54,646 nucleotides of DNA from a virus. Its lineage: Duplodnaviria; Caudoviricetes. The position numbers and the translations under genes were made by a program. Below the pieces are notes generated by a model, which worked only from the letters and a program-made list of their open reading frames with translations, was not told the origin of the DNA and ran no database searches. Positions 21,354-54,646 of the stretch are shown here, piece by piece (the stretch's first letter is position 1; each line of letters opens with the position of its first letter). The stretch covers positions 1 through 54,646 of IMG/VR virus record IMGVR_UViG_3300044729_003149. The stretch is one strand, 5' to 3'.

Positions 21354-22894
21354 AGTGTGGCCTCCAATTCATCAAGTTTGTCTGGGTCAAGATCGTCATC
21401 GTTGGTTGTTGCGGGTGCGTCATCAAATTCAAACATCGAGTTAAACATAGTAGTGGCACTGAACATGCGTTTGCCAGTGCGTCCACGTGTGCCGATGATC
21501 AAGTCGCAGGTACTGCGATAGTGTTCCACTGCTGCCAGACTGCGTTCACGATCTTGATGATGGAATATTTCTTCCACAATGTTTCTAAAGTCGTAATCAC
21601 TGCTGTATTGTCCTGCCAGCATGCCAGGTTTTTGATCCTGGTCGTACAGTTCGTTGGCAGTCTGCACGGCATTGATATGATGCCACACATTGTGACCCAT
21701 CATGAGTGCATAGCTGAAACTGTCCCAACTGGTCTTGCCTTCCTTGCCCAGCTTGTTGAGATCACCAGGACCATAAACACACACATCACTGATTTTGAGC
21801 CGCTGCGATATGGGTGAATCATCAAACACCGAATGAATGCCGTCCTGTATCACAGCATCACGGAAACTGCGTTGGTCTGAGGCATAGCGTTTGTTGTCTG
21901 CCGTGGGTGCCATTCTGTAGGTCCACTTGTCGCGATTGGGGAATATGCTTTGATAATACAACTGACCATTGGCTGTGGCCAAGAACGGTGACGCACAATC
22001 AAAAGATATTGTGAAGTTGGGATTGTGATAGCGTCGCACTGCACGTTGAATGTCAGTGAGCAAGCAGGCCCATTCCAGCTTGGATGTGCCCAGGAAGTGC
22101 ATCCAATCATGTACACCGGGCTCCAACAGACCATCGTGTATCAAGGTCACAATACGCTTCAGCACCAGATGCACATCACACATGTTTTGACCACCCATGC
22201 CCCAGCCATTGAAATGACGTCCGGGATAACGTGCAGGATCGCTGTAGTGTTTCATGATGTCATACCATGCATCGGCTTCGCCGTGATCTGCACCCTGCAA
22301 CACGTTGAGATATCTAGCCCCGCCTTCGGCCACACCACGACGATTGTCAATAAAATAGTCATTGTTGTAGATAGTGGCGTTGACGGCATCTTCATAGTTG
22401 TAAATGCCAGTCTTTTCGCTGGAGCCAGGCCATTTGCTGGTCCAGGTGGGGATATCCAACGTGAGCCCATAAGTTGCAATGCCATCCTGCCATTTCAGCA
22501 CAGCCTCACGTTTTTTCTGTGCCTTGGCACAGCCTGATCCTGATCTCCAATCGCCTTCCCACACGCCCTTGGCAATTTGAAATCCGCCTGAGTCACACAA
22601 CATAGTCACACCACTATCGCGATTGCGAATCATGTCCTCTTTGGGGTTGTGTTTGGTGAGATCAAGATCAGCATGTCCAGCTGAGTACAGTGCCCACTTG
22701 TAAGGAAACAAGGCCTGCTGTGGGTTAAGAAAATTCATCTGTTCCATGTCAGGCATGGCTGCAGGCATGCGAGCAGGATCAACATAGTTTTCAAATCGTT
22801 GACGACCGATATAGGTACTGTAGAAACTGCTGATGGCCGGAAGAAAAACGGCGTAATCTTGCTGCCTAGCAGTTAGGTCATGTTGTTCAGTCAT
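21350..22894 (-). CDS. dpdA: TGT-family guanine transglycosylase (DpdA-like, probably DNA-acting)
   Basis: DSGGFQ, LDIP, NVLQG, MHFLG, SFDCAS motifs; clustered with dpdL and que genes. Confidence 0.75.
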   Translation of the reverse strand: MTEQHDLTARQQDYAVFLPAISSFYSTYIGRQRFENYVDPARMPAAMPDMEQMNFLNPQQALFPYKWALYSAGHADLDLTKHNPKEDMIRNRDSGVTMLCDSGGFQIAKGVWEGDWRSGSGCAKAQKKREAVLKWQDGIATYGLTLDIPTWTSKWPGSSEKTGIYNYEDAVNATIYNNDYFIDNRRGVAEGGARYLNVLQGADHGEADAWYDIMKHYSDPARYPGRHFNGWGMGGQNMCDVHLVLKRIVTLIHDGLLEPGVHDWMHFLGTSKLEWACLLTDIQRAVRRYHNPNFTISFDCASPFLATANGQLYYQSIFPNRDKWTYRMAPTADNKRYASDQRSFRDAVIQDGIHSVFDDSPISQRLKISDVCVYGPGDLNKLGKEGKTSWDSFSYALMMGHNVWHHINAVQTANELYDQDQKPGMLAGQYSSDYDFRNIVEEIFHHQDRERSLAAVEHYRSTCDLIIGTRGRTGKRMFSATTMFNSMFEFDDAPATTNDDDLDPDKLDELEATL

Positions 22895-32709: not shown

Positions 32710-33010
32710 TGGCTTCTTCCGGTACGTAGATCTGTATGCTGCCATCATTGGCAATAATGGCCGAACCCGACACTATTTCTAGATCCTGCATATGAATTTT
32801 GCTGTGCTCAGGATCTACCATTTCCAAACGCACACGATAGCGTCCAGCTGGTGCGTTCAACACAATGTTTTCTTCCAGGTACACACCTTCCCAGACCCAA
32901 GTGCGCTCACAAAACAATTCGTCAGCAACATATACTCTGTAGCGTGGTGGCTGATTGAACCACTCACAAAATACTTTACATTTGGCCACTGCTCCAAAGG
33001 TCTGCATCAT
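32696..33010 (-). CDS. hypothetical beta-rich protein
   Basis: 104 aa, operon packed. Confidence 0.7.
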   Translation of the reverse strand: MMQTFGAVAKCKVFCEWFNQPPRYRVYVADELFCERTWVWEGVYLEENIVLNAPAGRYRVRLEMVDPEHSKIHMQDLEIVSGSAIIANDGSIQIYVPEEANATA

Positions 33011-33192
33011 GATATCCTTGTGACATTGCTGACCAGGGCGTCTTTGCCATACTGTGCCTGCAGCAACAGTCGTGCCATGGCAGGAGACTTGGCAAATATC
33101 GCGGTGTCAACGCTCATGCTGTAGTCAGGGTGCTTGACCTTGACCTGAGCACGGTACACATGAAATCCTGCAAATATTTCTGAGGCTCTCAT
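33007..33192 (-). CDS. small protein with MRASEI N-terminus
   Basis: 61 aa; ATGA overlaps. Confidence 0.7.
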   Translation of the reverse strand: MRASEIFAGFHVYRAQVKVKHPDYSMSVDTAIFAKSPAMARLLLQAQYGKDALVSNVTRIS

Positions 33193-33647
33193 GATGCCAC
33201 CTTTCTCAATACCATGACATCTGAACCAGATGCAGCTATCTTTGCTCGCTTTTCTGGGCTCAACTTAGACATGTCAAATTGACGATATCCCACACTGTCT
33301 GCAAATCTTTTGATCAAGCTTTGATATACTTTGCTACGACTGCCGCCTTTGGCTGAGAATATGAATACCCTGGGTTGATATCCACGTAGATATTCTCTAA
33401 ATGCTTCTAGCACAGTGCCCAGCACTCTGTTGGCATCTCCTCCGCCAGTCATGTCATAACTGTCGTTGCGTGAGAATTCTACTTCAACAGTACTGGCAGA
33501 CAAGGGAATAAACTTGATGTCAATGTAGCCACCCTGTCTATCGTAAGCACGACCATGCATTTCTTCCGGACCAAAATGGTCGTTCCACTCTATGGGAAAA
33601 CTGGTTTCCGGATCGTACAGTTCGGTGATAAACTCTTGAGATCGCAT
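33189..33647 (-). CDS. putative capsid-targeted internal protein
   Basis: MRSQEFITE N-terminus; FSAKGGSRSKVY motif. Confidence 0.7.
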   Translation of the reverse strand: MRSQEFITELYDPETSFPIEWNDHFGPEEMHGRAYDRQGGYIDIKFIPLSASTVEVEFSRNDSYDMTGGGDANRVLGTVLEAFREYLRGYQPRVFIFSAKGGSRSKVYQSLIKRFADSVGYRQFDMSKLSPEKRAKIAASGSDVMVLRKVAS

Positions 33648-33648
33648 G

Positions 33649-35109
33649 TCAATGGAACATTAAGTAACTGTCTGCCACGTCTCGTCTTTTGGCAGCACGA
33701 TCCCCAGCGCCAGGTTGCACAATCACATTCCATTTTGGTGGGGCGTACACTGGCACTTTTGTAATTGTACCGTCTTTCTCTAGTTTTTCCTTGTAGCCAA
33801 TTGGCCCTGGCTCGGGGATATCCAACATCTGATCATAAGTTATGATACTGTTTATATCTACTTTGTATTGTTGAGCCAGGCGTTGACGGAACGTTTCCAG
33901 TGCTTCTTGACTCTTGAACTGTGTACGACCCTTGGCATCTTTGATCAGCTTGTTGCCGTCACGGGCAATCAAATCAAAGAACATGTCCTTGGGCACAGTT
34001 ACGCCTTGCTTGACCACCTTGCCTGCGGCTTTTTGCAGTTCAACTTTCTTTTCTTGGCCACGCTTGCTGCCTGAGCTAAAATTGATAAGGAAATTTTCTG
34101 GGCTGTCACCGGTGGCCACATCCGCCATTTTTGTATATGCATAAAACATGACGTCAGGATTGGCTTCGGCCACTTTGTATGCTAGATCCAGGTATTCTTT
34201 GCTGAAGAAGTCGCCAGCATCGTGCCAACGCACTACCAGTTGAATACCATGTTTGTCAGTTTTCTTTTTGATAGTGCCAATTTCTTTATTCACTGTGCTC
34301 ATGTAGCCGTCAGGATCGTTCACCAGGAAGTTCAAGGCCTGTGCTGCTGACATAGAGCTGGCCGGGAACATCACATAGCCGCCCTTGCGAGCATAACAGA
34401 ACAGTTGGCAAGCACCTGCACCAGGGCAGGTTGTGATCTCTACAAAGTCGCCAGTATCTTCGTCAACAACAATGCCACTCAAGGCAGGCAGAGTCAGATC
34501 ATAAATGATTTCACCCTCAGTGGCTGACTTCTCCATCTTGGCATTGGTACCAAGAATGGCCTTGGGGCGTGTGGTGATTTGACGAGCTAGATCATCAAGA
34601 TCCCATGCGGTCTCACCATCGTCCATGACAATGGCCTTGATGTTGCTGCCATGAATGATGGGAGCCAGTTTGTCTTTCTTGGTCTTGGTTCCGGTCTTGA
34701 TACGATCTGCATAGGCCTGCAGTTCATCTCGTGGCATGCGACGCTGTGGCGCATTGAGTTTGATGGCTTCGTTTAACTCTAATTCACTTTCGGGAAAAGC
34801 AATATAACTGTCGCCGTTGATGTCGCCAATGCGCACAACAAATACACCGCCTTCGTCGTCGCCTTCATTTTGTCCGATTGACCATCCCATGGCTGCAAGT
34901 GCTTTTTCTGCACGTGGATCTTCATCACCGTGCCACCACTTTGCAGCCAACCGGCGCAGAATTTCTTCTTGGTCAGGCTCTCTATCATCACCAGTGCCAG
35001 GAGCAAATTCATTTAATCCGGCTTGTTGATCTTCAATGTTCAAGACCTTGATGGGAAATCCGCCCAGAGTGCGTCCACGACTTTCTAGTGTAAATTCTTT
35101 AGCTCGCAT
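33649..35109 (-). CDS. modular protein with Gp88-like (radical-SAM-related) C-terminal domain
   Basis: MRAKEFTLE; two LNE breaks; TCPGAGACQLFCYA, VRWHDAGDFFS, FYAYTK. Confidence 0.7.
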   Translation of the reverse strand: MRAKEFTLESRGRTLGGFPIKVLNIEDQQAGLNEFAPGTGDDREPDQEEILRRLAAKWWHGDEDPRAEKALAAMGWSIGQNEGDDEGGVFVVRIGDINGDSYIAFPESELELNEAIKLNAPQRRMPRDELQAYADRIKTGTKTKKDKLAPIIHGSNIKAIVMDDGETAWDLDDLARQITTRPKAILGTNAKMEKSATEGEIIYDLTLPALSGIVVDEDTGDFVEITTCPGAGACQLFCYARKGGYVMFPASSMSAAQALNFLVNDPDGYMSTVNKEIGTIKKKTDKHGIQLVVRWHDAGDFFSKEYLDLAYKVAEANPDVMFYAYTKMADVATGDSPENFLINFSSGSKRGQEKKVELQKAAGKVVKQGVTVPKDMFFDLIARDGNKLIKDAKGRTQFKSQEALETFRQRLAQQYKVDINSIITYDQMLDIPEPGPIGYKEKLEKDGTITKVPVYAPPKWNVIVQPGAGDRAAKRRDVADSYLMFH

Positions 35110-35697
35110 TCAATAACCTCTTTTGAGTCTTTCGTATCTCATTTGATCTGTTGTACGTTTGGGATCAAATGCTGTTTGAAAAGGATCTTCAACCGGTGCT
35201 CGCCAACTGTTGGGATCAGCTCGGTCTAGATTGGTTCCACCTCCACCCTGAGAAATTTTGGGCAGGGGTGCGATCTTGACTGCTGGCGTTTGTGGCATGG
35301 GTGCGGGTTTGACTGCTGGCGTTTGTGGCACAGGTGCAGTCTTGACTGCTGGCGTTTGTGGTACAGTTGTGCCAATATTTTGACTTCTATATTCGTTGGG
35401 TGTTAATTTACGACCAGCTTTTTCATCAGCGCCTAACATATCACCAATACCAAGAAAATTTCCAGCTCGTTGGCTGGCCTTTTGCTGGGCCGACCATCTT
35501 TGAAGAGCTGCACGATCAACTGGTTCTGTTTCCAGTGTGCCGCCACCTAAAATTTCTTTTCTAATAAGTTCAGGAGTTCGTTCAACCCCTCCTATTACTG
35601 GATATTTTGGGGTTACTCCGGTGGCACGCTCGGCATCAATCTGTTTAAAGATTTCATTGTAATCTAAGATTTCACTCACAAACTCTGTAGCTCTCAC
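35110..35697 (-). CDS. putative capsid-targeted protein with proline-rich repeats
   Basis: GTG start giving (M)RATEFVSE; PQTPAVKxAPx x3. Confidence 0.7.
   Translation of the reverse strand: MRATEFVSEILDYNEIFKQIDAERATGVTPKYPVIGGVERTPELIRKEILGGGTLETEPVDRAALQRWSAQQKASQRAGNFLGIGDMLGADEKAGRKLTPNEYRSQNIGTTVPQTPAVKTAPVPQTPAVKPAPMPQTPAVKIAPLPKISQGGGGTNLDRADPNSWRAPVEDPFQTAFDPKRTTDQMRYERLKRGY
35261..35361. repeat. 33-bp tandem repeat x3 (coding)
   Basis: TTGACTGCTGGCGTTTGTGG at 35276, 35309, 35342. Confidence 0.9.
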
Positions 35698-36452
35698 TTG
35701 TTTCTTCCTGATTTCATGTTTGCACACCAGTGAGCCATGCGCTGGCGCTCGCCTGATGAATTTTTTGCAATGCTTCTCAATTTACTTATGGACTGTTTGC
35801 AGTTCACTCCTGCTCGTCGGGCTCTGCCTGGGCGGCTTTTGCCCTTGACTTTACCGTCGGCAAAGTTTTCGTTTAATGAATCCTTCAAGAACTGTTCGCC
35901 AGCGCTAGTTACATACCAATATCCATCGTCATCTACAATATAACCGTTGTCGCTTAAACTGTCTAACACGTTATCATATTCGGAAGTGCGTGATTCATCT
36001 TCTATAAAATCCATACCTAACTTTGTTGCTGTATAGATTGCGTGTAATACAAGAATCTTACCTAAACCTTTACCTCGATATTCAGGATATACTTCGGCGA
36101 TACTACGACCAGTGTCAGCATTATATTGATAAACACCTGCGGGCTCGCCGTCTACTGTCATTGTAGTAGCAAATTTATTACCACCTGATTGAACTGTGAA
36201 ATTGATTTTACTGTTGACTTTACCGTCAGCAAAGTTTTCATTTTGTATTTGACTAGGGCCGTAAACTACAGCATTGGGATTGACACCGTGTTTGGTTTCT
36301 AACTTTCTTATAAGCAACGGAATGTTTTTATTGGGAAAGTTTCTGGCTACCAGTCTAGTGATTGTATTACCGCGATGTTTCCCACGAATATAAACATCCA
36401 CCGGATCATCTGGACCTAAAGCAATTTCACATATAAATTCACTAGCTCTCAT
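35694..36452 (-). CDS. modular protein: capsid-targeting N-terminus, GNAT acetyltransferase domain, basic Cys tail
   Basis: MRASEFICE; VYPEYRGKGLGK (GNAT motif A); NENFADGKV twice. Confidence 0.75.
   Translation of the reverse strand: MRASEFICEIALGPDDPVDVYIRGKHRGNTITRLVARNFPNKNIPLLIRKLETKHGVNPNAVVYGPSQIQNENFADGKVNSKINFTVQSGGNKFATTMTVDGEPAGVYQYNADTGRSIAEVYPEYRGKGLGKILVLHAIYTATKLGMDFIEDESRTSEYDNVLDSLSDNGYIVDDDGYWYVTSAGEQFLKDSLNENFADGKVKGKSRPGRARRAGVNCKQSISKLRSIAKNSSGERQRMAHWCANMKSGRNK
35845..36243. repeat. 30-bp direct repeats flanking the GNAT module
   Basis: TTGACTTTACCGTCRGCAAAGTTTTCRTTT at 35845-35874 and 36214-36243 (2 mismatches, 369 bp apart). Confidence 0.9.
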
Positions 36453-38893
36453 GTTCTCACAGGCCTAGCCATCTTTACTATCACTGCATGCAGTCCAGGA
36501 TGCAGAGGCTGCGGCAGGTCCGACGGTTTGAACCAACCATAGTCTTGGCTTTCTGAATTCAGCCTTGGTTGAAACTCCGTTGGCACAACACCCACAAAGG
36601 TTTGATAATTTTTGTTGCGATTCACTGGTGTGAGTTTGATGGCACCTGTGTAGCCGCTTTCTTCTGCAAGCTCACGACGCACTGTGTCTTCGGCTGATTC
36701 GCCTGAGTCGCGACCACCACCCCAACAGGCCCATACGCCAGGATCATTCACAGTTTCACTGCGTTGCTGCAAACACCAACGGCCTGTGTCCTCGGCCACA
36801 ACAATGCAGCCGGCCGCAAAGGGGCCACTGCTGGTATCGCGTTGTTCCACTGTGCGTGTGGTACCGCCTGCCCCCACATAGATAGCACGGAAGTCCACGC
36901 CAGGATATTCTCGTGCAAGATCCTTGAACACACGTAGATTGCTCATTGAATCATCATACAGCCGCACATGATTGTATTTGCTTGTGTCAAGATAACGTCG
37001 CACCCAAACGGCTTTTTTCTCAGCCGGGATAGCATCGCCCGGCAGGTTACCAGCACGATGCACATGCACACGACTCATGTCTATGCCAAGATCGCTAAAG
37101 GTCTGTAGAAATTCTTGTTTGTTGTCAAAGTCAGCTCGGGCTGTGAGCATGATGACTTCAGCATTGGGATGGTATGCCAGGATGGTCTTGAGCTTGCGTA
37201 TCATGGGCTCAATGGGCTGGCTCTCCTGTCTGAACTTTGCAGCCGATCTAAATTCACCAAAGTCAAACTCTTCGCCTGGTGCCAGCTCGTAAGTGTTGAA
37301 TTCTTGATTGGTGAGCTCACGCACCACCTCACCGTCTTTGACAACACGTATCTTGGCCGTGGTGTGCATCAAGGTGTCATCGATGTCAAATATCACCAAG
37401 TCAGTAGCACCGGCGTCACGATCCTGTTCTACAAAAACTGCACTGTCTTCGCCCATGTTGTGAAAATTTTCAAACAGACCATTGGGTCGGGCAATCTGTG
37501 GGTGCCCTTGACTGTCTGTCTTCAGTTTCAATTTATTGGCTTCGCGGCCAGTCTGTCCGGGTTTGATGTCCACGGTGAGAGCCATTTTGAATCTTGGATC
37601 GTTCTTTTGTTTGGCTGTGGGAATGTATCCTGAAGCTTCAGCAAACATTTCGGGACGAGCATCAGCAAAGTCACGCATGATGATACCGGCCCGAGCATTG
37701 GCTTCGTTTTCCCAGTCTGATCCTGTTCGTCCAGCATCGTGGGGCAAATCGTCTCGCTGATCCTGCCGAGCGTGAGTAAGCTCGTGTGCCAGTGTGCGCA
37801 ACACATCTAGGATGTGTCTTCCATCCACAGACAAATGCATGGCATTGTCTTGCCGGTCATAGCGACCAAAGCTGTGATTTTTTTCCTGCCATTTACTACC
37901 ACGATGAATTATTATCTTGGGAAGTTTTTGTAGTCCCAGTTTTTTGGCAGCAAATTTTGCAAATTCTTTTATGGTTTCTATGTCGCTGCGATCATTTTCC
38001 ACAAACATTTTTGTGGCAGCACCCACGCCATGTGGTGTGGATTGTTCACGCATGCTTTCTCCACCACCGCCATCACCACCACCTCCATCACCGCCGGTGT
38101 CACCACTGTCACTGTAACCAAATCCCGGATACCACCAACCACCCCAGGCATAACGAGTGCGTGACTTGCTGCGAGATTTTTTGCGGCGTTCAACAAGACT
38201 GAGCTCTTGATCACGAGCCTGGTTGCGAGCATCAACTAGACGTTGAATGTAGCCTTGATTACGCAGCATCTTGAACACCAAGTTGTCAACACCAAACTCA
38301 CCCTGCTGTTCAAGACCAGCAGCTCGCATGGTTTTGATTTTGTCCAGCAACTGTTGAGTGCTTTTGGCATCAGAATCATCAATCACAGATTCTATGCGCT
38401 GCACTAGATCTTCGTATTTGCTGCGCACCGCACTGTCGTCTAGATTGGCCTTTTGTCTGCGCGGAACTGACAGCCATTTGTCATGCAACACACTATAGAT
38501 GCCTTGGCTGTGGTGCGGCTGATCACTGGGCTGCACATAGAGTTCAACGTCGTAGCCACCAATGCGGATATTGTGTTCTTGATTGTACTGAAATTTCTTG
38601 GCCTTGAACAGCTCCTGATACACGTCATCATCAGGCATGTTGACCACTAGGTGTAGATCAATGTCACTGTGCGGAGTATAGGTATATGCTGCGTTGCTGC
38701 CAGATATTGTGATGTCTTCAAGATCAAGATCCTGTACACCCATGAACTCTCTAAAGTCCTGTGCTATCAGCAACAGCCGTTCCCGCACATCAGGCTGCAT
38801 TTGTTCATTTTTTTGCCAGATGCGTGGATTGAGCTGATCGTGAAATTTCACAGCATCAGCAAGATTGAATGATTCCAATTGAGAGATGTTCAT
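36449..38893 (-). CDS. multi-enzyme polyprotein: Pol-beta nucleotidyltransferase, HEXXH metallopeptidase, HAD phosphatase, Nudix hydrolase
   Basis: GSN...SDIDLH; AHELTH..ENEANA; FDIDDT..LTAR..YDDS; GGGRDSGESAEDTVRRELAEESG. Confidence 0.85.
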   Translation of the reverse strand: MNISQLESFNLADAVKFHDQLNPRIWQKNEQMQPDVRERLLLIAQDFREFMGVQDLDLEDITISGSNAAYTYTPHSDIDLHLVVNMPDDDVYQELFKAKKFQYNQEHNIRIGGYDVELYVQPSDQPHHSQGIYSVLHDKWLSVPRRQKANLDDSAVRSKYEDLVQRIESVIDDSDAKSTQQLLDKIKTMRAAGLEQQGEFGVDNLVFKMLRNQGYIQRLVDARNQARDQELSLVERRKKSRSKSRTRYAWGGWWYPGFGYSDSGDTGGDGGGGDGGGGESMREQSTPHGVGAATKMFVENDRSDIETIKEFAKFAAKKLGLQKLPKIIIHRGSKWQEKNHSFGRYDRQDNAMHLSVDGRHILDVLRTLAHELTHARQDQRDDLPHDAGRTGSDWENEANARAGIIMRDFADARPEMFAEASGYIPTAKQKNDPRFKMALTVDIKPGQTGREANKLKLKTDSQGHPQIARPNGLFENFHNMGEDSAVFVEQDRDAGATDLVIFDIDDTLMHTTAKIRVVKDGEVVRELTNQEFNTYELAPGEEFDFGEFRSAAKFRQESQPIEPMIRKLKTILAYHPNAEVIMLTARADFDNKQEFLQTFSDLGIDMSRVHVHRAGNLPGDAIPAEKKAVWVRRYLDTSKYNHVRLYDDSMSNLRVFKDLAREYPGVDFRAIYVGAGGTTRTVEQRDTSSGPFAAGCIVVAEDTGRWCLQQRSETVNDPGVWACWGGGRDSGESAEDTVRRELAEESGYTGAIKLTPVNRNKNYQTFVGVVPTEFQPRLNSESQDYGWFKPSDLPQPLHPGLHAVIVKMARPVRT

Positions 38894-52557: not shown

Positions 52558-54645
52558 TTACTTTTTACTTTTGTTGCCCCAGTTGGCAGCACCTTTTTTA
52601 CGGCACTGCACCAGAGCACCTGAAGCATAGGCACTGGGCCAAACTTTGTAACGACTGCGTACCTTGTGATAGCAGGCATCTTGCTTTTCTGCCAGCACAC
52701 GATCTTCATAAGCAGCACCGCCACACTCAGGACATTGAGTGCGTTGTGATTCTTTTACATTGTATTTCTTCTTTAATTCTGCTGCCTTGGCATAACGCTC
52801 TTGGTCAGGAAGATCGTATGTGGCCTTTAATTCTTTGTAGTAGTCGGGATCAGGCAAGCCAGACTTCTTTCTTAATTCTTGATGACGCTGGTGTAGTTTA
52901 TCTTGCACAGAGCCTTCCGCCATACCTTGCTCTGACAACCATATCTTTTTAGAGGGCACTGTGCTACCAGCGCACGATGGGTCTGTATCAACCAATTGTT
53001 GAATAGTGTCAATCATTTTTTCTGCTTTTTGTTTACCAACAGGGGTGTTGATTTGTCCAGAATTGGCCAATGATTGTAATTGCGAGTGCAGGGCACCATA
53101 TTGTCGTTGTCCAGGAGTTTGTTTGAAACTGCCTTCCGCCACACCTTCTTGCATATACTTTTTCTGTAATTCCAAATCAGCAGGAGTTGCCTTCCTGATT
53201 AGATTAAGATATTTGTCTACCGGAACTGCTTTTATTTCTGTAGGCTTGATACCTTTTACTCCAGGTATTGAATAAAATTCCCTGTCATGGGCACCTTGAA
53301 CGAATTGAGGTTTACCATCGGGCCCATTGAATGGCACCTTGTGTAGATATACATTTTCACCTTTTCTAATATTTCCTTTGAACAACACCATTTGTGGGTC
53401 GTTTGGAAACATACCTGTATCACTGCCAGGAGTAGTAAGTCCCATTGCTATAGCAACCTTAGGATCACTGGTAGCGTAGATAGCATTTTGATTACTACCT
53501 GCGGCGCCGCCTGTGTCTACAGATTGGCGTGGTTCTAACATAGGAATCTTTTGTCTTGACCCGTGCCACAGATATTTTTGTTCGGAGCCTTCCGCCACAC
53601 CTTCTTTTAGACTTGTTATATAATTTACAGCAGATTTCAAACCTCTAAATTCTTTTACAAAAGCACGACCTGGTCCATGTCCATAAGCAATATATAGACC
53701 TTCAGAGGTGTCGGGCTGATTCTTTATTACATACCCGATCATTTCTTTGCCGCGAAATACATGCCATTCTTTTTCATGTCCGTCATCGTGAACTTTGTCA
53801 ACAGTGACATCGGGAGTTATGGAGCCTTCCGCCACATCTTGTTGACCTTTCATGGCCTGCAGCAGCGCACGGGCAACCACACGATCTTTTTCTTGTTCTT
53901 CATTGTCCAAATTTGCATAATTGATTTTCATCAATTTTGCTCGTTGCTGAAGTTTGGCATCTAGTTTACCAGCTTGTCTTAATTTTTCTGTATCATCAAA
54001 TTGATCAGGATTTTGCACAAATTTCTGCGCAGTGACATTCCAACCTTTGTGAATGGCATCTGAAATTTTTTCAATGTCAGTCACACCTGCATCTATCATT
54101 TTTTTGGCGTATGCTGCGGACATCAGATTTGCCTGCCAACCAAAAGTGTTCCCTGGCGCACTGCGGCCATAACCGTATGCGTTGTCTAGTGCTTCGTCAC
54201 TGATAGTTGCCAATTGTTGTATGCTTAGTTCCTGGGCAGAGCCTTCTGCCACATCTTCATATGCATAATCATCATCTGCTGTGAGACTGAGTGCATACTT
54301 TACATATTTTTTGTTATTGTCCAGTGCCTTTTCTAATTCTAAAATACCATATGGTGTGAATGTATCACGCTTCCAATCCCAGTAACCAGGAATGTCACTA
54401 ATCTCCGCAGCTATTTGTTGAATTTTAGCTTTGACTTTTGGGTCAAGTCCAAACATGTCTTCTGCCACACGCTGTTGATATTCTTGTTCGTCGTCGCTGC
54501 CAGCGTAGTCATTGTGTTCAACATCGCTGCTGTGAAAACTTTTGCGACCATGATTGTAGAGATCTACCACCACAAAGTCACCGTTGCGACCAATGTCTAC
54601 CACATCGCCAGTTTTGCCCCGGAACTCCACATTGCCAGTGATGAT
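52558..54645 (-). CDS. repeat-delimited polyprotein (RyR-like, ART-like and unknown modules), 5' end beyond window
   Basis: frame open to right edge; six V/MAE(G/D) junctions; IHKGW..YANLDNEEQEKDR; LWHGS..IYATSD; DACYHKVRSRYKVWPSAYASGAL tail. Confidence 0.8.
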   Translation of the reverse strand: MITGNVEFRGKTGDVVDIGRNGDFVVVDLYNHGRKSFHSSDVEHNDYAGSDDEQEYQQRVAEDMFGLDPKVKAKIQQIAAEISDIPGYWDWKRDTFTPYGILELEKALDNNKKYVKYALSLTADDDYAYEDVAEGSAQELSIQQLATISDEALDNAYGYGRSAPGNTFGWQANLMSAAYAKKMIDAGVTDIEKISDAIHKGWNVTAQKFVQNPDQFDDTEKLRQAGKLDAKLQQRAKLMKINYANLDNEEQEKDRVVARALLQAMKGQQDVAEGSITPDVTVDKVHDDGHEKEWHVFRGKEMIGYVIKNQPDTSEGLYIAYGHGPGRAFVKEFRGLKSAVNYITSLKEGVAEGSEQKYLWHGSRQKIPMLEPRQSVDTGGAAGSNQNAIYATSDPKVAIAMGLTTPGSDTGMFPNDPQMVLFKGNIRKGENVYLHKVPFNGPDGKPQFVQGAHDREFYSIPGVKGIKPTEIKAVPVDKYLNLIRKATPADLELQKKYMQEGVAEGSFKQTPGQRQYGALHSQLQSLANSGQINTPVGKQKAEKMIDTIQQLVDTDPSCAGSTVPSKKIWLSEQGMAEGSVQDKLHQRHQELRKKSGLPDPDYYKELKATYDLPDQERYAKAAELKKKYNVKESQRTQCPECGGAAYEDRVLAEKQDACYHKVRSRYKVWPSAYASGALVQCRKKGAANWGNKSKK
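52910..54474. repeat. six dispersed about 18-20-bp direct repeats encoding (G/D)VAEG
   Basis: consensus (+) GCCTTCYGCCAYAYCTT starting at 52912, 53131, 53587, 53824, 54241 and (divergent copy) 54457. Confidence 0.9.
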
Positions 54646-54646
54646 C

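Follow-up and report, generated by a model that had tools for sequence, protein, structure and literature searches.

Three described systems come closest to the gene examined here: the internal proteins of phage T4, the polyvalent proteins of tailed phages and the PeSL cassettes of T4-type phages. According to the available account of T4 (PMC9026906), the first 10 residues of internal protein III (IPIII) suffice for packaging into the head, the prohead protease gp21 cuts after L/I-X-E, and foreign proteins fused to IPIII or to its leader are packaged in the laboratory. Internal proteins are described as diverse between related phages, with only the targeting sequence in common (PMC9026906, PMC3012670). 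For polyvalent proteins, both head packaging and proteolytic release have been proposed, the processing being attributed to peptidase domains that these proteins themselves contain (Iyer, Burroughs, Anand, de Souza, Aravind 2017, PMC5512222), and PeSLs are presented as non-coding promoter/terminator units, similar to one another in their DNA, on either side of entire genes (Arbiol et al. 2010, PMC2839356). In this study, we undertook a computational analysis of a gene for a 252-amino acid (aa) protein in a 54,646-base stretch of viral DNA, IMG/VR record IMGVR_UViG_3300044729_003149, rated about 16% complete and referred to as a whole as the window. The protein consists of a short leader, an N-terminal domain (N-domain), a GNAT acetyltransferase module and a basic C-terminal tail, and the GNAT module lies between two copies of the peptide NENFADGKV. 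The explanation that we favor, at a probability of roughly 0.6 for the whole, is that this gene belongs to a modular cargo-gene system of uncultured T4-related jumbo phages of lake water with genomes of ~340 kb, that its modules are exchanged at joints, that it reached its present form by recombination, and that its product would be loaded into the head, released by proteolysis and active in acetylation.

The likeness to the T4 internal proteins IPI, IPII and IPIII begins with a short N-terminal leader of the same core (MKTYQEFIAE in T4, MRASEFICE in the window) that ends in hydrophobic-x-Glu. It extends to small size and basic character, to variation of the cargo between related phages, as reported for T4, and to the prohead protease, which is gp21 in T4 and has its counterpart in a Peptidase_S77 gene in the related genomes here. 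The two differ in that the window leader is one residue shorter, that sequence similarity does not reach beyond the leader, that several folded modules and internal joints occur in one chain here, and that a conserved C-terminal tail is present which is common to thousands of proteins. By analogy, the 252-aa gene looks like a natural version of the laboratory IPIII fusions.

As in the polyvalent proteins of PMC5512222, several unrelated effector domains occur in one tailed-phage polypeptide, and the repertoires overlap (GNAT, ADP-ribosyltransferase, Pol-beta nucleotidyltransferase, ParB-like, zincin peptidase). Their defining feature, at least two unrelated effector-type domains per polypeptide, is found here in the three folded modules of the structural model and in the domains of relatives. 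However, conserved junction peptides and a single-joint allelic series do not appear in the available text of PMC5512222. With PeSL cassettes, as portrayed in PMC2839356, the locus shares shuffling among related T4-type phages by recombination at short repeats around non-essential cargo, but the joint here is coding, lies in frame and bounds protein domains, and the synonymous sites of ENFADGK vary freely. In-frame conserved joints with an allelic series are absent from the available descriptions of these closest known systems, and the joint and tail motif strings occurred in no phage paper of the literature searched.

Occupants of the NENFADGK joint

A scan of viral contigs identified 194 relatives, which fall into three classes (GNAT with tail, GNAT alone, tail alone) and of which 80 loci were kept. 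With the N-domain alone (residues 10-72) as the query, 16 relatives at 66-90% identity were found besides the window's own cluster of 10 members on 23 contigs. Twelve of the 16 join the domain directly to a single NENFADGK followed by the tail, and in several of these empty relatives the junction VVYGPSQIQNENFADGKVKGKSRPGR, predicted for a deletion of one repeat plus the insert, is reproduced letter for letter; locus L052 is a further empty form. Three others carry a different domain at the same joint, namely an ADP-ribosyltransferase (P0009) and a deaminase (P0020), both confirmed by Pfam, and a stretch of ~95 residues for which no family was named (P0016), and in the last relative (P0019) the N-domain continues into a NUDIX domain and there is no tail. 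The preliminary description of this DNA had proposed that the GNAT module was acquired as a cassette at this joint, in which case the module should not always be present; with 12 empty forms and three other inserts it is not, and these empty and alternative forms support acquisition, gain being preferred over loss by parsimony only.

A second locus provides a nested series at the level of DNA, from leader plus tail (L081, 64 aa) through the addition of one domain (L078, 139 aa) to that of a nucleotidyltransferase (L054, 240 aa); the DNA identity of its flanks is 87-92%, and an overlap of ~33 nucleotides (nt) marks the limits of the insert. Our comparison demonstrates that in related phages the Glu-NFADGK joint holds nothing, this GNAT, or a predicted ADP-ribosyltransferase, deaminase or nucleotidyltransferase. 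Because the same joint is empty or variously filled, and because the GNAT also occurs between QGVAE-G joints, we conclude that entire folded modules undergo in-frame gain, loss and transfer at such joints. The joint is a natural plug-in site for protein modules.

The stretch is present in 20 lake-water metagenome runs. In the contigs of four lake runs the occupied allele is spanned intact, for example by an 860-nt record in run X20 and a 3198-nt record in X4, and several other contigs of runs X2, X4 and X11 share only positions 35827-35870 with the window and diverge at 35870-35872, the glutamate codon. At ~6000-6075 of L003, the end of the upstream gene loosely resembles the end of the N-domain and is followed by a stop and a new leader; as L003 has a stop and leader where the window has a joint, gene boundaries and in-frame joints seem interchangeable.

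The repeat structure first noticed in the window was confirmed. The two 30-nt direct repeats are identical at 28 of 30 positions, whereas two matches were obtained in none of 100 dinucleotide shuffles, and wider repeat detection lengthened the pair to 38 nt at 87% identity. Their spacing is 369 nt, equal to 123 codons that enclose the GNAT, both mismatches are synonymous (AAT/AAC for Asn, GCT/GCC for Ala), and each copy begins at an xNE motif (QNE at copy 1, LNE at copy 2). The AlphaFold model, with a mean predicted local distance difference test score (pLDDT) of 73.5, has folded units at residues 17-66, 83-194 and 207-247, and the pLDDT falls under 50 only in the leader and at the two repeats (Table 1). 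The modules are thus predicted to be connected by exposed linkers, each with a Glu at its end and NFADGK directly after it.

The joint peptide, the tail family and the GNAT module

An open reading frame (ORF) with ENFADG was found in 56 of the 80 loci, in eight of the 56 with two copies. The motif stands, in most loci, at the start of a basic module of ~57 residues (NFADGK...HWCANMKSGRKK) that forms the C-terminus of proteins of 63 to 1583 residues, and the smallest genes encode the leader and tail alone (L081, mentioned above, and L070 and L073, both 63 aa). A profile of the tail matched 2164 representative clusters at E <= 0.001 among 1.84 billion; it is C-terminal in 132 of the 150 best profile matches, and 23 of these 150 have at least two matched stretches. 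At least two motif-like copies were present in 11 of the 12 tail-profile proteins inspected, ENFADGK occurring three times in P0034 and four times in P0123. Since multiple copies occur across other proteins, ENFADGK is a standing inter-module joint and not an oddity of this gene. It is also distinct from the GVAEG joint, as the preliminary description had suggested, and is present in up to four copies per protein. Among 45 distinct ENFADG contexts, 35 have L, V, M or I two positions ahead of the Glu.

The QGVAE-G joint of the same lineage draws on the same pool of modules, including this GNAT, likewise ends in Glu and also takes part in module swapping. The two joints differ in that GVAE is frozen at the level of DNA (82 of 95 contexts use GCG for Ala versus a background of 8%, and 76 of 95 use GTG for Val versus 22%), whereas the conservation of ENFADGK is confined to the peptide, which follows the Glu and also serves as the beginning of the tail. 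Across loci, the silent sites of GVAE are held as GGT GTG GCG GAA, followed by GGC. A window polyprotein that runs off the end (52558-54646, minus strand) has EGVAEG, EGVAEG and QGMAEG joints at 53601, 53145 and 52926, and another occurs at 22336. In L035, L008 and L007, GVAE, DVAE or GVVE continues directly into NFADGK, and the Glu is therefore common to both joint types. The novelty lies in a second joint, conserved at the level of the peptide alone and belonging to a tail that is in single copy in each related record where it occurs.

That single copy was observed in four of five large related records, among them all three that are near-complete, and the window also has one. The tail has no Pfam family even at E <= 1 and no relative among PDB sequences, and a structural search with it was uninformative (best Z 3.6). 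Its two cysteines (C...HWC) covary, in that every sequence inspected (among them the window tail at 35697-35873, L010, L011, L018, P0105, P0106 and P0157) carries Cys at both sites, or else Thr/Lys in place of the first and Leu in place of the second, and the pairing hints at a disulfide or a metal site. The window tail looks like a mosaic, with a first part (KVKGKSRPGR) of the type that accompanies the N-domain relatives (P0005-type) and a final stretch of 38 residues that matches L059, the other tail type, at every position.

The identity of the GNAT module is indicated by Pfam family PF00583 (Acetyltransf_1), which scored 22.8 bits with the whole protein and 24.3 bits with the module alone against a cut-off of 20.7, and was matched by 12 of 17 module copies at E <= 0.01. 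Motif A of GNAT proteins, which binds acetyl-CoA, has the form Q/R-x-x-G-x-G/A; RGKGLG at residues 126-131 fits it, and G50 and G52 are invariant in the alignment of GNAT copies. A Foldseek search with the three-domain model returned almost exclusively acetyltransferases (and one phage tail), the best E being a weak 2.2e-3 with TM-scores of 0.2-0.3, and a profile search of PDB sequences returned weak GNAT rows only (1yvk, E 0.026).

The contexts of the module are varied. Loci L002-L006 have the order leader-ENFADG-GNAT-ENFADGK-tail in proteins of 185-187 aa. In L013-L034 the GNAT lies inside polyproteins, between QGVAEG joints or between ...SEA and NE-ASGYIPS; such polyproteins of relatives are up to 1723 aa and have GNAT, nucleotidyltransferase, ParB-like, deaminase and HExxH parts. 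The GNAT cores of L007, L019 and L020 are identical over 109 residues in three different contexts, which we count as evidence for a recent movement of the module. In the GNAT tree labelled by joint type the base is unresolved, so origins cannot be counted, and all parts of the window gene are 65-79% identical in DNA to the fetched loci, so that a recent donor or a breakpoint is not mappable among them.

Phage lineage, gene layout and neighbouring genes

The family-B DNA polymerase of the window has its nearest GenBank phage counterparts in Sinorhizobium phage Phosso (50% identity) and Agrobacterium phage Atu_ph07 (47%), and on this gene alone the phage is placed in a jumbo T4-related lineage. 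Related records with the shared locus are 342-358 kb and 95-100% complete. Neither blastn with the locus nor tblastn with the 252-aa protein gave a match among 50,697 GenBank phage records, PHROGs has no family for the 252-aa gene, and no Pfam family was found for its N-domain. The ATG of the gene overlaps the stop of the upstream 814-aa gene (ATGA), and its TGA shares bases with the GTG that starts the following gene (GTGA). The consensus of T4 late promoters, TATAAATA, has one match in the window versus 0.54 expected, a result that carries no information on timing.

Table 1. Positions in the window of the 252-aa gene, its parts and the adjacent multi-module gene.
Feature	Position	Strand	Basis or content
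252-aa gene: leader, N-domain, GNAT and basic tail	35694..36452	-	ORF, translation
Leader MRASEFICE, residues 1-9	36426..36452	-	Resembles T4 capsid-targeting sequence; pLDDT under 50
N-domain, residues 10-70	36243..36425	-	Relatives; model with beta-hairpin, helix and strand at residues 17-66
Repeat copy 1, NENFADGKV, residues 71-79	36214..36243	-	Low-confidence linker, pLDDT under 50 at 69-80
Compact GNAT module, residues 80-193, with RGKGLG at 126-131	35874..36215	-	Pfam, model, Foldseek
Repeat copy 2, NENFADGKV, residues 194-202, start of tail	35845..35874	-	pLDDT under 50 at 196-206
Basic C-terminal tail module, residues 194-252, NENFADGKVKGKSRPG...HWCANMKSGRNK, three short helices	35697..35873	-	Profile, model
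814-aa multi-module gene	36449..38893	-	Nucleotidyltransferase, basic/Gly-aromatic stretch ending GGGGES, HELTH (HExxH, zincin-like), FAE-ASGYIP, phosphatase-like part, NUDIX

L061 (66% identity) and L052 (81%) have the HAD-like part of the 814-aa gene as a gene of its own, with a tail. At ~38050-38190 (minus strand) the 814-aa gene contains a peculiar module made up of a run of basic residues, a stretch rich in Gly/Tyr/Trp and an acidic Gly run with GGGGES at its end, and this module follows the leader in many relatives (P0005-P0016). On the other side, the gene at 35110-35697 has no relative in the 80 loci and the lowest G+C content at third codon positions (GC3) of 53 long frames; three tandem 33-nt copies at 35256-35361, 85-100% identical, encode PQTPAVK-type repeats in it.

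Proposed head loading and proteolytic release, and the alternatives

T4 IPII and IPIII start with MKTYQEFIAE, and leaders of the window type share with them the core EF-[IVT]-x-E. A strict leader pattern gave 11 matches in five related genomes and none in a reversed control. Peptidase_S77 was found in four of five large related records, including all three that are at least 95% complete. The four genes downstream of the 252-aa gene (33007..35697, minus strand) have the leaders VRATEFVSE (35697), MRAKEFTLE (35109), MRSQEFITE (33647) and MRASEIF (33192). As a side observation, 33007-36452 (minus strand) thus holds five consecutive genes with M/V-R-A/S-x-E-F/I leaders, joined by ATGA/GTGA overlaps, and the leader DNA is itself repeated.

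The 252-aa protein is read as head cargo because of its leader, the residues at its joints, the predicted disorder of its linkers and the presence of Peptidase_S77 in related genomes, and from these features we infer that it is probably cut and packaged. Presumably, recombination placed a GNAT unit that already began with ENFADG before a resident tail, giving the form found in the window, and one possible route would be a crossover of an L002-type gene with a gene of N-domain plus tail. The leader would then load the protein into the prohead, and a T4-type head protease would cut after E9, E72 and E195, freeing the N-domain, the GNAT and the tail, which would be delivered with the DNA, and the GNAT would acetylate a host target. 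A bolder proposal, which we regard as doubtful, is that the Glu-NFADGK joint and tail form a dedicated "hitch", in which the tail would be a small basic protein of the head and any folded enzyme could be slotted in frame between its loading tag and its body and freed by the head protease; together with the DNA-frozen GVAE joint, this would give the lineage the equivalent of an integron for protein domains, based on a dedicated recombination mechanism and not on chance crossovers sorted by selection.

Several observations weigh against loading, release and recombination as outlined. No match to a head protease gene was found in the window, which represents ~16% of the genome, and the HExxH module of the adjacent 814-aa gene could be an alternative processing enzyme. 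The first joint reads Q-N-E, and I-Q-N-E in most N-domain relatives, a misfit to the L/I-X-E of T4, and 10 of the 45 ENFADG contexts have T, A, K or Q two positions ahead of the Glu. In the GNAT tree the window copy stands on a long branch (0.26) and does not join L002/L003, so the proposed L002-type donor has no phylogenetic support. The three other inserts at the N-domain joint have no NFADGK on their left, so insertion at this site does not generally go with a duplication. The joint expected from a 369-nt deletion was found in none of the contigs of the four lake runs, which is weak evidence because contigs drop rare variants. For the 21-nt ENFADGK core, the window pair agrees at 20 of 21 positions, and 15.6% of 778 between-locus pairs agree at 20 or more; this degree of identity is usual for the peptide, so the repeat is a sign of peptide conservation and dates no event. 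From locus to locus, the motif shows free variation in its codons for Ala, Asp, Gly and Lys, and the DNA of the flanking repeats was not found to be conserved beyond coding constraint.

An alternative that we consider possible though unlikely is that the joints are uncut flexible linkers or docking peptides in a single three-domain chain, with NFADGK kept for a function of the tail itself. The conserved residues of the motif follow the Glu, which is unusual for a protease with a known rule that concerns the residues preceding it, and the poor fit of Q-N-E and the lack of any known fold or function matching the tail are also in line with it. However, the first copy is under selection even though it is detached from the tail, ENFADG being kept in the window, L002, L003 and L011 while its neighbours differ. 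The Glu is moreover shared with the last Glu of the leader (L081, L002) and with GVAE (L035, L008), the second position ahead of it is enriched in aliphatic residues, and the linkers are predicted to be disordered by AlphaFold. These features argue against an uncut chain.

It is quite improbable that the direction was the reverse, with ancestral N-domain genes having carried the GNAT or several modules and the empty forms having arisen by deletion between ENFADGK repeats. Deletion readily occurs between direct repeats of this length (30 nt), it would keep the frame intact here, and the GNAT tree does not polarize the events. Nevertheless, four occupants versus 12 empty forms at one site would demand an ancestor with all four or many independent losses, and the other three inserts lack a left NFADGK repeat to drive deletion. 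By parsimony, though not from a rooted tree, the four occupants and many empty forms point instead to additions at a site that was empty.

The claim that the GNAT module is AT-rich was correct as to its GC3 of 0.281, but the leader and N-domain are equally low at 0.286, so that this composition is not specific to the insert. The GC3 of the tail is 0.508 (residues 1-193 versus tail, Fisher p = 0.0026), and the sole break in composition falls at the second repeat, on the tail side, which is a caveat on insertion of the module. In eight of eight relatives examined, the GC3 of the GNAT was below the average of its own locus. A recent insertion of a mobile element, with the 30-nt repeat as its target-site duplication, would suit an exact in-frame 369-nt unit of low GC between near-identical repeats but is very hard to credit, given that the insert has no recombinase, endonuclease or intein-like part (Pfam gives only GNAT-type families and a weak sub-threshold HTH_45), that the repeat identity is ordinary for this peptide, that the low GC3 extends outside the repeats through the N-domain, that the motif is a standing joint in many proteins, and that the GNAT has ~75% DNA identity to all fetched copies, with no recent donor found among them.

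The empty and occupied alleles constitute a clean test system for natural in-frame domain shuffling. In addition, the tail can serve as a probe for cargo: its 2164 representative clusters, each with a different cargo, are a source of candidate host-takeover or anti-defence enzymes. If the cutting and packaging of the 252-aa protein are true, the system would be the natural counterpart of the laboratory loading of foreign proteins into T4 heads, and it would show giant phages assembling and renewing an arsenal of injected enzymes via in-frame domain exchange at standard joints.

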